DNA of 20,000 nt, taken from IMG/VR virus record IMGVR_UViG_3300037419_002114, one strand, 5' to 3'. Below the pieces are notes generated by a model that was not told the DNA's origin, did no database searches, and saw nothing but the letters and a program-made list of their open reading frames with translations. Positions within the stretch are counted from its first letter, which is position 1. Each line of letters begins with the position of its first letter. A program made the translations under genes and the position numbers. This stretch comes from an uncultured virus (IMG/VR IMGVR_UViG_3300037419_002114) (taxonomy: Duplodnaviria > Heunggongvirae > Uroviricota > Caudoviricetes). This document shows, in pieces, positions 14,392 to 19,848 of the stretch.

Positions 14392-15322
14392 TTATACAGG
14401 GCGAATCGTAGAAAGAAACTCGAAACTGTCGAAAGTGAACGGAAGTTCTTCTTTGACAATATCGCCAACAGTGAACTTCAACACGTCAATCTTGTCGAAA
14501 GACACGCCCTTCACACGAATGCGAAGCGATTGTCCGTTAGGCGAATCCGGGTCAGCAGCCGAGAAAATCAACTCGGTAACCCAAGGCTTTTTGGTATCGT
14601 CCATAACTTGGGCGATGTTTTCAAGGAACTCAGTCGTAACTTTATCTTTTCTACCCTGTCTTTCGACATATTTGCATAGGGAATAGACTATACCACACAC
14701 TCATTGAGTGTCCTCTTGGTAGTCGTTGGGGGCACGCCATTACGCTTATCCCTGCTGATTGTCCAATCCTAAGAATTTTTACACTTTGGTATCTTAGGCT
14801 CTAAGGAGTTTCCAGCATATTCGAGGTTTGCTATAAGCATCACTGCTTAAAGGGGCTATACGTTAACCCAGTTAAATGACCAGTTCCTTTAAAACCAACA
14901 ATCTTATTACCGATAGAACGTGTACCTGCACGTTTAATTTCGGTCTTTTGAAGGTCAACAGAGATTTCTCCACTGTCAGCATTCATCAACCATTGTCCAC
15001 CATAGTACACAGTAACGAAGTTCATTTTCTTTACGTTCTTGGCTTTTTATCCAAGACTCCTATACCTTCCTATTCGGTATAGATGAGCATACATTTTCAC
15101 CCTCGCCATTATGCGTTAGGGTGTCGAGCACTCGTGGAGAGATTATATTTATTCACTCTCTATGCGTTACACTGCTTTTACGCCTTTCGCTATCGTAAAA
15201 GTTAGCACGGTATTAGGAATCTCACCCTTCACCGTTTTTGCTCGATGATTATATAGATGCTTTCGCACCTACACGGCAACTGATTTACCGGAGATTACTT
15301 GAGAACCGTCTAAATATGCCAT
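14392..15322 (-). CDS. Tail tube protein (XkdM-like, 148 aa), split into three exons: 15322-15287, 15022-14866, 14645-14392
   Basis: ATG at 15322 follows RBS GGAAGGAG just after the sheath stop. Joined exons read MAYLDGSQVISG|NFVTVYYGGQW...KIVGFKGTGHLTG(Y)|KVTTEF...ADPDSPNG...EELPFTFDSFEFLSTIRPV. This restores the tube motifs VIxG, GTGxxTxYKV, DPD and ELPFTF. Confidence 0.92.
14646..14865 (-). ncRNA. Group I intron (220 nt, ORF-less), second intron of the tail tube gene
   Basis: 5' exon ends GGGU and pairs with the intron guide GCCC (U.G at the splice site); intron ends in G (AGAAAAG). Core elements: P AUAUGCUGGAAA, Q AAUCAGCAGG, R CAACGACUAC, S GGUAUAGUC. P7 GACUA/UAGUC, P3 CCUC/GAGG, P8 ACACUC/GAGUGU, P9 UGUC-GAAA-GACA. 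Phase-1 splicing creates the UAU (Tyr) codon of TGYKV. Confidence 0.92.
15023..15286 (-). ncRNA. Group I intron (264 nt, ORF-less, subgroup IA-like), first intron of the tail tube gene
   Basis: Junctions CCGGU^AAAUCAGUUGCCG ... AAAAUG^AACUUC. Guide AGUUGCCG pairs with the ligated junction CGGU|AACU over 8 bp including U.G. P3 UCGAGCA/UGCUCGA, P4 ACGGU/ACCGU, P7 GCAUA/UAUGC with J6/7 GUAAC, extra stem GAGAG/CUCUC between P7 and P3', P8 CACCCU/AGGGUG. Phase 0. Confidence 0.92.
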
Positions 15323-15340
15323 GGTCTATTCTCTCCTTCC

Positions 15341-16411
15341 TTATACGAAGATACTTAGGAATACTTGCTCAATCGAGTCAAGTTCTAAGTAACTCACTGT
15401 GATATAAAGTTGATCGCCAACAGATTGCTCAGTCTTATCAACACCAACTTGAATGTTCGTCAGCACTTCTGCTGCTTGAAGGGATTCAAGATAGAGTTTA
15501 ACCATCGATTGAACATAAGCCGCTCCGTTGCTATCGTTTGTGATTTGTCCGATAACGGATGCTTCAACAGAACGAGTGATCGAAGTGGAAACCGTTTGGC
15601 GAACTTTCTCTTTACGAATTTTCGTAAGATTAGTTGTGATGCCTTGCTCAAGTCGTACAAACTCGCCATTGTTTACAAGCACCAAAGAACCGTTTGCAAC
15701 TGCATTTTTAATGTCAGAGATTGCAAGGCGTTTGGTTACATCGTCAACAGGCAACTTGAGGAACGTGATGCTTTTTTGGAGAGGGCAAGAAGCAACTGCA
15801 CCAGCAACATAACTTGCGAATTGTGCAGAGTTCTGAGTTACTCCATCAGTTACAACACCACTGATAAGGTTTAATACATAGTCATCTTTCACACGAACAC
15901 TGCGAGCATTACCAATCGAAGGGTCAAGGTCATCAGCCGCTACTACACAACCAACTACTGCGAAGTAGTGTTTGCCAAGGTCACGATTTTGTTTTACCCA
16001 ACGAACGCAGTCGTCTTGTTCTGTTGCAGATACGATACCATCGTATGCGAACACATCGAAGTTATAGGTGTCAAGCACCGCACGAGCGTCATCATACGCA
16101 ATCTTTTCGGTTACAGTCGTACCATCGATTGCTTCAAGCGTATACACAAGAACTTGAGCAGCCCCTGCGGATAGAGCGTTTTTAATCGATTGAACGTTAG
16201 CCGCTCCGAACGTATTTTCTGCAGTGGTAATGTCATTGATTGTATAAACAGTTTTTGCGGTTGCAGTTCCGTATGTCACCAAAGGGATAGCGACAACCCC
16301 ACGACTTGCTACAGTCGAAGAAACCTGTGCATTTGCTAGGGAAGTAAAGCGAACATACAAACCTGGAAGGGTATTACTTGCATTAGATGTTGGATCCCAT
16401 GTTCCAGCCAC
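15341..16411 (-). CDS. Contractile tail sheath protein (XkdK-like, compact 356 aa)
   Basis: N-terminal LPGLYVRF...RGVVAIP, YVAGAVA...SITF, LEQGITT...KIRK, YLESLQ and C-terminal DSIEQVFL. Precedes the tube gene. Confidence 0.9.
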   Translation of the reverse strand: MAGTWDPTSNASNTLPGLYVRFTSLANAQVSSTVASRGVVAIPLVTYGTATAKTVYTINDITTAENTFGAANVQSIKNALSAGAAQVLVYTLEAIDGTTVTEKIAYDDARAVLDTYNFDVFAYDGIVSATEQDDCVRWVKQNRDLGKHYFAVVGCVVAADDLDPSIGNARSVRVKDDYVLNLISGVVTDGVTQNSAQFASYVAGAVASCPLQKSITFLKLPVDDVTKRLAISDIKNAVANGSLVLVNNGEFVRLEQGITTNLTKIRKEKVRQTVSTSITRSVEASVIGQITNDSNGAAYVQSMVKLYLESLQAAEVLTNIQVGVDKTEQSVGDQLYITVSYLELDSIEQVFLSIFV

Positions 16412-16427
16412 TAGAGTTCATCTCCTT

Positions 16428-16874
16428 TTAAGGAATAATTACCGTAGAAACACTCTGAATCTTAGCGAGTTCGCCTTGATCGATTGCTTCACGGGTTTGC
16501 GTTGTAAGTACGCCAACTAAAACATTCATGCTCGACTCGTTCCAAAAAGGCTGACCAAACGTAAGATGTTGTATTCTCATATATTTGAGCGTATCTTGTA
16601 TTGGAATTAAAAGCCGTTTGTTGAACGAATACGAAGCAAGATTATCAACGACATTCAAACAATCTTGAATGTTATTGCTAAAGTAAACGATTTGCCATTC
16701 GCGAGTAATCACAGAATGAGAAGCCGTTTCAAGTTTTCGATTATCGGATTGATATCGAATAACATACGTACCACTTTGAGGAGTTAAAGGTACGTTCTGA
16801 CGTTCGATAGTAGCAGTAGGGTCACAATATTGAATAAAGGAAACTACTGATTCAAGTTCCGTTATCAGCGACAT
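16428..16874 (-). CDS. Tail terminator / tail completion protein (XkdJ position)
   Basis: ATG at 16874 (MSLITELESV) follows RBS AAAGGGGTGG, next to the upstream stop. Lies immediately before the sheath gene. Confidence 0.7.
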   Translation of the reverse strand: MSLITELESVVSFIQYCDPTATIERQNVPLTPQSGTYVIRYQSDNRKLETASHSVITREWQIVYFSNNIQDCLNVVDNLASYSFNKRLLIPIQDTLKYMRIQHLTFGQPFWNESSMNVLVGVLTTQTREAIDQGELAKIQSVSTVIIP

Positions 16875-16875
16875 G

Positions 16876-17337
16876 CTACCACCCCTTTGCTCGTAATGCG
16901 GATTCAATCTCGGATTCGATAGCATCTTTCAACTGAGCATTTACCGTATCAAAGGCGACTTCAAAGTGATTCCCATATCCGATTCCTTTTTTCGGACTCC
17001 AACCTTCTTCCCCTCGTTCATACCAGTAAAGGGCGTAGTTAAAGTCACGATGTGAAAAAAGAATATGTTTTCCTGTCTTACTTCCTTTATCGCCTGCATA
17101 CGCATTATCGTAAATTTCACCAACCATCACACCGCTTGAAAAAACGGAAGCGATCGGGTTTACGACTTTGATTTCATCTTGCAAATGCCCTGTATCAATC
17201 AGTGCATCTCTTCGTGTTTCCTCAGCCCAAATTTGAAGAGCATTTTGGATTCCTTTTTGACTGGCTTTACCAATCGTTTGTGGTGTGGTTTGCATCGCAC
17301 GTTTTAACTGTGAAAGTCCTTTGATGGACAAACTCAT
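16876..17337 (-). CDS. HK97 gp10-like neck/tail completion protein
   Basis: Motifs SIKGLSQL, ALIDTGHLQDEI and FNYALYWYE. Confidence 0.82.
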   Translation of the reverse strand: MSLSIKGLSQLKRAMQTTPQTIGKASQKGIQNALQIWAEETRRDALIDTGHLQDEIKVVNPIASVFSSGVMVGEIYDNAYAGDKGSKTGKHILFSHRDFNYALYWYERGEEGWSPKKGIGYGNHFEVAFDTVNAQLKDAIESEIESALRAKGW

Positions 17338-17684
17338 ATCACAGTCACCACACTCAACATCGGCTTTCCGGATAATCCTCGGATAACTTTAACCGACAGA
17401 ATCGAATAGATAACCTTGTTGCCAAGTTCGTCAATATACTGAATCTGATCGTCTAAGTCTAAGTCGATATGTTTATCAAAGAAAATCTCGCCAGTAGCAA
17501 CAATTTCTTTTCCACGCACATCACGAATCGAATGCATAGCAGAAGCGTTTTTCATCACTTTTGCCCCATCGTTAATTCGGCATTTTACTTCCACTGGCGG
17601 AAGGTCTATCTGTCCGCCCCACCCATCGGAAGTTTTGCTTTTGCGTAAGATGGTCACCTTTTGGTGCATAGGGATTAGTGGCAT
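17334..17684 (-). CDS. Head closure / head-tail adaptor protein
   Basis: MPLIPMHQKVTI...DGWG...VKCRI...DDQI pattern; gene order. Confidence 0.75.
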   Translation of the reverse strand: MPLIPMHQKVTILRKSKTSDGWGGQIDLPPVEVKCRINDGAKVMKNASAMHSIRDVRGKEIVATGEIFFDKHIDLDLDDQIQYIDELGNKVIYSILSVKVIRGLSGKPMLSVVTVI

Positions 17685-17685
17685 G

Positions 17686-18093
17686 TTACTTCATCCCTGT
17701 ATACCTTACTTTATAAGAAGCAGGCTTATTATTTGCCTTAGCGATCAACTGCACGCTAATTGGTGGGATTAGCGAAGTGAAGTCGATATAGTTCGCTTGG
17801 CGAACGCCCATACTCCGAAAAGAGAACGTTCCGAGCGATTGAATCGTAAAAGAATCGATACCTTGAAGCTGAAGTTTATTCGTATCGGAAAACATAATCG
17901 ATAACACATTAGCAAACTCGTAAACGGCAGGGTCGGGAATGATAAGGTTCGGATATGCGTCCGTAAGCGTTCGACTGGCTACATTTAAAAGTCTTGTTTT
18001 TTGGTCATCCTCAATGTTCGATACCCATTCTTCAACATCAATGCAATTAAGAGAAATATATTCGTTTGCAGAAGTTACATCCAAAATGAACAC
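17686..18093 (-). CDS. Head-tail connector (head completion) protein
   Basis: ANEYI...W...DQKTRLLNVASRTL...AVYE...GIDSFTI pattern; gene order after the capsid. The true start may be TTG at 18084, after GGAGGTG. Confidence 0.72.
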   Translation of the reverse strand: MFILDVTSANEYISLNCIDVEEWVSNIEDDQKTRLLNVASRTLTDAYPNLIIPDPAVYEFANVLSIMFSDTNKLQLQGIDSFTIQSLGTFSFRSMGVRQANYIDFTSLIPPISVQLIAKANNKPASYKVRYTGMK

Positions 18094-18098
18094 CTCCG

Positions 18099-18404
18099 TT
18101 ATTTAGTAGAGGATTTCTTTTTCGGCTTTTCTTCTGCCACTTCCTCCACTTTTACTTCTTCAACAGGTGAAACTTCCTCCGCAGGAACTTCCTCAACTAC
18201 TGCTTCTTCTTTTACTTCCTCTTGGACTTCATCCTTACAAGGACATTCAAGAACTTTAATATATTGAGGTGCAAGTGCTTTGAGAGCCTTTACTTCTTCT
18301 GCATCAGTTGTTTCATATTCGCCAAAGTAATCAAAACGGATTTCTTTGTCCGCAAATTTTACTTTATAGAATTGACTAGATTTAAATTTGTGTTTCTCGT
18401 TCAT
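18099..18404 (-). CDS. Small capsid-associated hypothetical protein with Glu/Val-rich low-complexity tail
   Basis: RBS AGGAGG. N-terminal IRFDYFGEYETTDAEEVKAL, then EEV repeats and a basic end. Lies immediately after the capsid gene. Confidence 0.8.
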   Translation of the reverse strand: MNEKHKFKSSQFYKVKFADKEIRFDYFGEYETTDAEEVKALKALAPQYIKVLECPCKDEVQEEVKEEAVVEEVPAEEVSPVEEVKVEEVAEEKPKKKSSTK

Positions 18405-18416
18405 CGTCTACCTCCT

Positions 18417-18446
18417 AAAAAAAAGAGGTGGCCATTACGCCACCTC
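18417..18446 (-). terminator. Intrinsic terminator after the major capsid gene
   Basis: Minus strand GAGGTGGC-GTAATG-GCCACCTC followed by T8, about 15 nt after the exon 2 stop. Confidence 0.85.
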
Positions 18447-18461
18447 ATGTTTTACCAACAA

Positions 18462-19848
18462 TTAAGAAACAGTTGTAGAAACGTTCTCGATGATGGCTAC
18501 TTTCTCTTTAGCGTTCTTCACGCGAAGACCGTATTCACCACGAATTTGACGAGCAACAAAGTCAGCCATTTTCTTTACGTTCTTGGCTTTTTATCCAAGA
18601 CTCCTATACCTTCTTATTCAGTATAGATGAGCATACATTTTCACCTTCAACTTGACTTGGTAAGGTGTCGAGCACTCGTGGGTTCATTATATTCTCTTGC
18701 GAGGTTCAGAACCTATGCGTTACGGTGAGCCACATCTATTACAATGTGCTTTACCTCGGTATTAGCATCTCAGCCTTCACCGATATTGCTCGATAATAAC
18801 ATAGATAATTTCTTACCTAAGCGGCAACTGATTTACCTGGGATCGATGCGTCAACGTCATACAATTGACGACCTTGAAGTGGAGCGAACTCAAGGATGTT
18901 GCGGTCAAACAGAACGATTTTATCTTTCGGCATGTTAGGGTCAACAACCAATACCGCTTCTCCGCCACCGATCATGTCGGAAACGATGGTGCTGATTTGG
19001 TGACCTGTTGCAGAATCCGTTCTTTGCGTACGGATAGCAGCATCTGCCATTTTGGAGATTTGACGAGCACCAGCCGTGTTAGTCAAGATGGTGTTAGCCA
19101 TTCCGCCCCTTTTGAAAATTTCTTCGAAAAGATCGTTAACGCCCTTAGCAGAAAGTTCTGCACCACCGTTGTTTACTTTGAAAGATCCTTCAAGGTTAGC
19201 GAAGTTCAAAAGTCCGCCAGTCATACGAGGTGCACCTGCACCAGCATCGATTCTACGTCCGTAGATGATGGAATCGTTCATCTCACGAGCAAGTTCTTTC
19301 AAACGAAGTTGAACTTGGTAGTTCAGTTCATCGCCAACGTTGTATACATTTGTGTGCATACGAGTGTTGGTAACAGAAGCGTAACGTTCGAAGATTTGAG
19401 TGTAGTTGAACTGTACCAAACGGTCATGTCCTTCGTCCACTCCAGGCATTGCACCCTCAAGTTGAGGACGAGCAACAATGCGAAGTTCATCGCCTGCATT
19501 ACCTGATACTGCAGTCGTTCCATCGAAACCACGAACAACTGTGATTTGGTCACCGTTTACTGCGGTTACTTTCATATACTCATCGCCAAAAACTAAAACG
19601 GCATTCACACGGAATTTACCGCCATCGCCAGCAATAAGTGTAATCGTAGTATCGCCAGCCGCGAAAGAAGCGGAAGCATTTGCACGATTAGAATTCAAAT
19701 GGTCTTGCATCCACTCAAATTTGGTCTGAGTGTGTGGTACTCCGTTAAGACCGATAAGACCAAGCAAAATAGGTGCATCGTTGATAATCAACGAGATACC
19801 TGCTTCGAGGTCGCGAATTTGGTCTTGGAAATCATAAGACTTTAACAT
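18462..19848 (-). CDS. Major capsid protein (SU10/DUF5309-like, 372 aa), split into exons 19848-18835 and 18566-18462
   Basis: RBS AAAGGGGAG. Motifs KFEWMQD, NYTQIF, ELNYQV...KELAREM and RMTGGL. Exon 2 supplies ADFVARQIRGEYGLRVKN...TTVS*, carrying the conserved GEYxL capsid C-terminal motif, and is followed by a terminator. Confidence 0.92.
18567..18834 (-). ncRNA. Group I intron (268 nt, ORF-less, subgroup IA-like) in the major capsid gene
   Basis: Junctions CCAGGU^AAAUCAGUUGCCG ... AAAAUG^GCUGAC. P1 GGU/GCC with U.G, P10 UCAGU/GCUGA, P3 UCGAGCA/UGCUCGA, P4 UCGGU/ACCGA, P7 GCAUA/UAUGC, extra stem GGUUC/GAACC, P8 CACCUU/AAGGUG. Phase-0 splicing restores the reading frame. Confidence 0.92.

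Follow-up and report, generated by a model that had tools for sequence, protein, structure and literature searches.

Shared Ends and Dissimilar Cores in Two Group I Introns of the Capsid and Tail Tube Genes of an Uncultured Phage

The 20,000-nucleotide DNA stretch analyzed here (the window) derives from an uncultured tailed phage (Caudoviricetes; IMG/VR record IMGVR_UViG_3300037419_002114) and carries two related group I introns, one in the major capsid gene (capsid intron) and one in the tail tube gene (tube intron 1). Both belong to one widespread phage family, lack an open reading frame (ORF) and are, as judged from their modeled fold, predicted to be self-splicing. That the two are chimeric with respect to each other is well supported: their first 13 nucleotides (AAATCAGTTGCCG) are identical and their last 79 agree at 77 positions, whereas the core of the capsid intron groups with an intron from the head protein gene of another phage. 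We tend to favor the view that the pair is a recombinant mosaic, in which the 13 nucleotides at the 5′ end and the 79 at the 3′ end would stem from one recent ancestor and the interiors from different sub-lineages, an intron having been copied before interior replacement. The order of these events and the mechanism of mobility are what we infer from comparing the sequences.

Shared Ends and Divergent Interiors

The two introns align by blastn over 273 columns with 75.8% identity (52 mismatches, five gap openings). In the coordinates of tube intron 1, identity runs from 100% at positions 1–13 through 67% at 14–40 (P2), 63% at 41–118, 80% at 119–167 and 55% at 168–189 (P8) to 97% at 190–264; within the closing 79 nt (186–264) the two differences lie at positions 211 and 217. 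The core (41–189) is 67% identical, which is the level that either intron shows to family members in unrelated phages (58–71%). The 3′ region does not stand out by its conservation within the family: none of the 596 family pairs with 60–76% core identity reaches a 3′ identity of 90% (mean 67.4%), and the excess of 3′ over core identity in the window pair (+30.7 percentage points) is the highest of 990 family pairs (mean −3.0, standard deviation 7.7, next highest 19.9). The 3′ tail reads ..GAACGTAAAGAAAATG in both window introns and ..GATAACAAAAyTG in every other member seen. Since all other tails differ, the ends constitute a shared-derived feature of this pair and not a subgroup signature; being derived and pair-specific, they indicate that DNA has moved between both sites within this genome. 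Movement between non-homologous genes of one late operon, as put forward in the initial annotation, is thereby upheld; both genes are essential. Its intron coordinates and its placement of the genes on the minus strand are right as well, and the extent of the shared ends and the phase 0 insertion after GGU were reproduced by aligning the pair and reading the junctions.

Both copies retain every helix, and each of the compensatory differences originally listed for P2, P4, P6, P7.1 and P8 is present. The tube copy has GC/GC in P2 where the capsid copy has AA/UU, A-U against U-A in P4, G-C against C-G in P5, G.U and C-G against two G-C pairs in P6, GAGAG/CUCUC against GGUUC/GAACC in P7.1 and C-G against U-A in P8, while P6a is wholly different. 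This covariation had been read as a sign that both copies were kept functional. A working fold has indeed been kept, but an origin of the differences in place after a duplication is not supported: they are mostly differences between lineages of the family that were joined by recombination, and not the product of co-evolution after duplication.

A Separate Source for the Capsid Intron Core

Contigs from soil metagenomes contain a relative that matches the interior of the capsid intron and diverges into other sequence at both ends. A 30-letter loose end of this relative led to a viral contig (L060) with a full-length family member, intron R (217.8 bits with R1, a covariance model built from a ten-member alignment of the family). 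Intron R interrupts, after GGT, the gene for a major head protein that belongs to another family (PHROG 422; exon matches with E 1.2e-6 and 2.1e-40). Immediately downstream of this gene lies an ORF for an HNH-like endonuclease (L060:1-597, minus strand; PHROG 559, E 4.4e-16); going by its sequence, the locus has the arrangement expected of a free-standing endonuclease that mobilizes an ORF-less intron.

The capsid intron changes its closest relative along its length. From P1′ to P2 it is 74% identical to tube intron 1 and 31% to R, and R has no P2, whereas the capsid copy carries a tube-like P2 base. From P6 to P6a the relation is reversed (30% to the tube copy, 82% to R), as it is from P7 to P7.1 (75 and 90%, with a 9-nt insert common to the capsid intron and R) and in the core as a whole (67 and 85%). 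From P9.1 to the tail, identity is 100% to the tube copy and 62% to R. In a maximum likelihood tree of the core (38 members, positions 41–189) the capsid intron and R are sisters with support 100/99, and forcing the two window introns into one clade costs 45.1 log-likelihood units (approximately unbiased test, p 0.002). The same holds when only columns filled in at least 90% of the rows are kept (capsid intron with R 100/98; tube with capsid rejected, p 0.03). The tree of the 3′ segment unites the tube and capsid copies with support 100/100 and rejects the capsid intron with R (p 0.016). The core of tube intron 1, in turn, is closest to introns in DNA polymerase genes (81% identity to the clade, 79% to Leptolyngbya phage Lbo-JY46).

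The proposal of a single group I lineage occupying two genes must therefore be divided: it stands for membership of one family and for the shared-derived ends, and falls for the cores. A simple twin relationship, with the copies closest to each other in every segment, is found in the 3′ segment and rejected in the core. It had also been considered that each copy might group with a lineage of its own and that the shared ends might be generic to the subgroup; the former applies to the cores, whereas the ends are not generic. An intron phylogeny over the whole length, suggested as a check, misleads in this case, as it makes the two copies nearest neighbors (79%) despite the foreign core.

Origin of the Pair

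Under the mosaic reading, a whole intron would have been copied from one gene into a GGU site of the other, either by reverse splicing or by an illegitimate DNA event. Later, gene conversion in co-infected cells would have replaced the interior of the capsid copy, if not of both, with sequence of other family members. When the donor intron sits in a foreign gene, the tract would have to start and stop within intron homology; because such a donor shares no exon homology, interiors could be swapped while the extreme ends persist.

Several observations weigh against this reading. When R is left out, the approximately unbiased test does not reject a core clade of the two window introns (p 0.098), and the link of the tube core to the DNA polymerase introns has a support of 95/86 without R and of 52–80 with it. 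P2 is 67% alike between the copies and no other member matches it well; as it is both divergent and unmatched, at least one further event is needed. P8 of the capsid intron is 91% like that of Bacillus phage PJN02 and unlike that of R, so that the capsid core is itself a patchwork. Neither whole-intron copying nor homogenization of the ends explains P2 or the capsid P8 without further events, and the family evidently swaps helices often. A donor with ends of the pair type was found nowhere else among the scanned viral, metagenome and genome sequences: a 19-nt word spanning P7′ to P9 gave three matches in the metagenomes, all unrelated by alignment, the core motif gave none in the genomes, and a first viral scan with a stricter motif returned four distant members only. 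The window contains neither a reverse transcriptase nor an endonuclease gene. Finally, we infer splicing of both introns from the essentiality of the interrupted genes and from the modeled fold.

The strongest competitor holds that two family members arrived separately and that their ends were later homogenized by ectopic gene conversion up to the borders of heterology. This is possible, if rather doubtful. It would account for cores of different lineages and for identity that peaks exactly at both borders, and the likewise identical ends of introns I2 and I3 of Staphylococcus phage Twort suggest a recurrent process between co-resident introns. Yet it requires two ectopic arrivals plus two conversion tracts, each stopping precisely at a heterology border; a 5′ tract of 13 nt is very short for conversion, and the tube-like P2 base of the capsid copy remains to be explained when R has no P2 at all.

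Divergence in place, that is, a single lineage duplicated into the second gene with all internal differences arising afterwards by compensatory substitution, is what the common ends, the retention of every helix and the whole-length tree would suggest. We regard it as quite improbable: the cores are no more alike than those of unrelated phages, whereas the equally variable P9 and P9.1 are 97–100% identical, the sister position of R and the rejected tube-capsid clade contradict a common core, and the pair is the extreme outlier among all family pairs. An artifact, either a mis-assembly or a repeat without splicing function, has hardly any credibility left. The window is of metagenome origin, and the public runs listed for it include none of RNA. 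Against an artifact, two other viral contigs carry both copies unchanged, a 434-nt contig from an independent run (X10 record 6) spans the capsid intron together with its two junctions, joining the exons restores conserved proteins of full length, and the fold covaries.

Returning to the mosaic, a more specific mechanism may be envisaged, although we consider it unlikely: a group I intron would have truly transposed from one gene to another on the same late transcript, reverse-splicing into a GGU compatible with its guide sequence, and 'ends-anchored core swapping' would have followed. If true, the interiors of phage group I introns would be freely replaced from other genes and phages, and the termini would be the footprint of each insertion. 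Since both introns are in phase 0, with a common guide sequence and a 3′ domain that is shared throughout (the 3′ strand of P7 included), it could also be speculated that the 5′ part of the capsid intron pairs with the 3′ domain of the tube intron and that this leads to long-range exon skipping within one transcript.

Splice Junctions and Insertion Sites

In both genes the 5′ exon ends in GGT (GGU) in phase 0 and the insert ends in G (..AAAATG). By tblastn, all four uninterrupted capsid homologues break at 18835|18566 (..DASIPG|ADFVARQ..) with no residue gained or lost; residues 1 to 343/345 of these four full-length homologues align to 19848-18820, and residues from 339/341 onward to exon 2 (Table 1). 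Of 120 homologue clusters, 113 have an empty capsid insertion site, and the one group that reads into the intron is that of the window itself (P0001). In the tube gene, both full-length homologues break at 15022, where exon 2 starts, and at approximately 14867/14643; here too, the residue count is unchanged across the junction of intron 1. Across tube intron 2, the PHROG 365 profile is continuous (positions 15–66, then 67–143; junction 66|67). Each intron would have to leave the late mRNA to yield a capsid protein of 372 aa and a tube protein of 148 aa; the modal lengths of the homologues are 372 aa and 145–149 aa, respectively. Among the contigs of four DNA runs, which are short and of patchy coverage, none joined the exons across either intron and no intron-less allele was seen.

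Very little of the 5′ exon is recognized: the guide sequence GCCG in P1, which is widely conserved across the family, pairs with (C)GGU, and two A-U pairs within the intron are added, so that every GGU comes close to fitting. The upstream exon of ORF-less members reads CCGGT (tube intron 1, L040, L016/L019), ACGGT (R) or CAGGT (capsid intron). The predicted P1 hairpin with its U.G pair comprises 6 bp in the tube intron (−5.7 kcal/mol, z −3.5, with 1 of 200 shuffles as good) and 5 bp in the capsid intron (−3.7 kcal/mol, 34 of 200 shuffles as good), the missing base pair being an A.G in place of the C-G of the tube copy. The weaker capsid P1 would fit a secondary, ectopic site in the capsid gene. 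A likeness between the exon flanks of both sites (7/9 upstream; 9/12 downstream at a 3-nt offset) was dropped, with p ranging from 0.001 to 0.15 and the compared interval chosen post hoc, and P10 pairings drawn by eye (4–5 bp in differing registers) were not used as evidence.

Fold and Distribution of the Intron Family

The structure was drawn on ten members and comprises P2, P3, P4, P5, P6/6a, P7 (in a pseudoknot with P3), P7.1, P8, P9 and P9.1. Its 66 pairs in nine helices, including the P3/P7 pseudoknot, form standard pairs in 94.1% of 628 cells, and sliding the partners by one to three columns lowers this share to 33.5–43.4%. Changes on both sides occur in 44 of the 66 pairs, a number reached by none of 500 shuffles. 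In P7, all five pairs are kept in all ten sequences with one switch from A-U to G-C; P7.1 is present with five of five pairs covarying, and no separate P7.2 is evident. RNAalifold independently recovered every helix except P7 and P9. Both window introns are tentatively labeled IA-type on the strength of the Twort link (see below).

Model R1 detects no third family copy in the window. Rfam gives no match to either intron at the gathering score or at E ≤ 10; this says little, because the same search also missed the loci of 15 relatives, including a stretch of phiCD211 annotated as Intron_gpI. With blastn, relatives were found in 129 phage records when the capsid intron was the query and in 37 records with tube intron 1. 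They interrupt a RecD-like helicase gene in Bacillus phage PJN02 (two endonuclease-type ORFs within the intron), the DNA polymerase gene of Lbo-JY46 (LAGLIDADG ORF within the intron) and the terminase large subunit genes of two crAss-like phages, Staphylococcus phage SA2 and Clostridium phage vB_CpeS-1181; a further one lies between two tail genes of phiCD211. In PJN02, LboJY46, cr6_1 and L050, the endonuclease ORFs are situated just upstream of the guide sequence, which corresponds to the P1 loop. Neither window intron contains a sense-strand ORF of at least 40 aa.

Several phages carry more than one copy. In phiCD211 (L008, 28600-29156), a family member at 1485-1768 of the locus is followed after 23 nt by the annotated Intron_gpI (1792-2057), and the two may be tandem introns that lie between the genes for the minor tail protein and the tape measure. 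One viral contig of 31,840 bp harbors two members 11 kb apart (L040 and L046), which group together in the core tree (support 84–87/93–97) and are 74% identical in the core and 67% in the 3′ segment; the genes flanking them have no PHROG match. L016 and L019 carry two copies apiece, arranged in tandem and only 53–54% alike.

Comparison with Known Systems

The window introns are members of an already known kind of intron, and a precedent for their pattern exists in phage Twort. The Twort gene orf142 contains two 'highly similar' IA2 introns, I2 and I3, with a 23-nt exon between them (PMC10136302). R1 matches, over its full length, two stretches of Twort, 16987-17234 (53.5 bits, E 2.4e-14) and 17265-17543 (44.7 bits, E 1.1e-11), which, by their position and adjacency at a distance of about 30 nt, appear to be I2 and I3. 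Through these matches the family is homologous to a proven self-splicing ribozyme. Like the window pair, I2 and I3 combine an identical 3′ end (the last 70 nt) and similar first 45 nt or so with a divergent middle. They are, however, about 30 nt apart in one gene, whereas the window copies lie 3.5 kb apart in two non-homologous genes, and a separate source lineage for one of the cores has been identified for the window pair, unlike for Twort. The recurrence of the pattern in Twort suggests that the evolution of co-resident phage introns follows a general rule. The intron gene of Twort (L065, 16000-18200; PHROG 985, 'virion structural protein') directly follows the tail sheath gene, which is the position of the tube gene in the window.

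The td, nrdB and nrdD introns of phage T4 are related group I introns in several genes of one phage; endonuclease genes are, or once were, part of them. Bryk and Belfort reportedly saw domains shuffle spontaneously between T4 introns in 1990, in the form of laboratory recombinants. T4 resembles the window both in having related introns in several genes and in recombination through conserved blocks of the core. R1 has no match in T4.

According to a 2014 review, there has been no direct demonstration of a group I intron moving to a new site, and the best circumstantial evidence comes from ribosomal DNA (rDNA) (PMC3984707). Related rDNA introns at non-allelic sites are taken there as evidence of spread by reverse splicing, with the target recognized through 4–6 nt of P1 (PMC3984707). 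Those cases concern eukaryotic rRNA genes, whereas the window has chimeric copies, inserted into phage genes that code for protein. The phage offers a compact natural case in protein-coding genes, with two non-homologous essential genes, ends confined to the pair, a datable mosaic and an identifiable source lineage for one core. It also serves as a warning: in trees built on entire introns, and in tallies of compensatory pairs, recombination among family members can pass for co-evolution in place.

Group I introns in the major capsid gene and in tail genes, spliced during late expression, have been described for Cluster J mycobacteriophages (PMC3706429). These are of 'two distinct types' and occur in different phages, and the relevant passages of that article describe no shared ends. 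Collaborative homing, in which ORF-less introns rely on free-standing endonucleases, is outlined in two articles (PMC3984707, PMC2988022). It resembles the present situation in the ORF-less members and in the HNH-like ORF behind the capsid gene of R, and differs in that the window has no endonuclease gene. A capsid and tube pair with shared ends and foreign cores was not found in searches of open-access text.

Gene Context and Tube Intron 2

All genes of the window are on the minus strand and form a late block of the myovirus type, comprising an SU10-type major capsid protein, neck proteins, tail sheath, tail tube, chaperone, tape measure, baseplate, fiber and lysis genes. Among uninterrupted capsid homologues, the closest are encoded by prophages of Paenibacillus, Brevibacillus and related Bacillales; the presumed host is Paenibacillaceae-like. 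DNA of the window is present in soil and rhizosphere metagenome runs. The features of both interrupted genes are listed in Table 1.

Table 1. Exons, introns and shared intron modules of the major capsid and tail tube genes in the window.
Feature	Position	Strand	Description
Major capsid gene, exon 1	18835..19848	-	338 codons; SU10_MCP family; Pfam PF17236 E 4.5e-56; tblastn P0002, P0016, P0020, P0077
Capsid intron	18567..18834	-	268 nt; ORF-less group I, tentatively IA-type; covariance model R1 242 bits, full length
Capsid exon 2	18462..18566	-	34 codons + stop; tblastn residues 339/341-372/374 of 4 homologues align to 18566..18465
Tail tube exon 1 (MAYLDGSQVISG)	15287..15322	-	read from sequence; homologue P0122 begins MAYLQG...
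Tube intron 1	15023..15286	-	264 nt; ORF-less group I, same family as capsid intron; R1 273.9 bits, full length, top of 47 R1 matches
Tube exon 2	14866..15022	-	Pfam PF09393 E 6.2e-8; tblastn
Tube intron 2	14646..14865	-	220 nt; phase 1 after GGGU; other intron family, outside the pair
Tube exon 3	14392..14645	-	includes stop; PHROG 365 positions 67-143; tblastn
Shared 5′ module, capsid intron	18822..18834	-	P1 3′ strand with guide GCC(G); 13/13 identical to 15274-15286
Shared 5′ module, tube intron 1	15274..15286	-	counterpart of 18822..18834
Shared 3′ module, capsid intron	18567..18645	-	P7 3′ strand, P9, P9.1, 3′ tail ending in G; 77/79 identical to 15023-15101
Shared 3′ module, tube intron 1	15023..15101	-	counterpart of 18567..18645

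Tube intron 2 is not matched by R1 (6.3 bits). With blastn it finds 110 phage records, 68 of them from Staphylococcus phages and others including Prevotella Lak phages and phages of Acinetobacter and Bacillus. In a contig that is approximately 98% identical to the window (G001; L002:1106-1370, minus strand), the second tube intron has another sequence, some 265 nt long, and lies 27 nt (nine codons) farther upstream; it follows ..KIVG (GTA GGG T|TT), whereas that of the window follows ..HLTG (ACT GGG T|AT); both sites are in phase 1 after GGGT. Exon differences between the window and this contig cluster beside the intron, with 12 in 14897-14933, 15 in 14470-14643 and none in 14934-15640. Such clustering resembles the trace of co-conversion by a divergent donor and suggests that introns are still moving in this population. 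The variant intron has a weak R1 match (19.9 bits) and is 81% like part of Twort I2.

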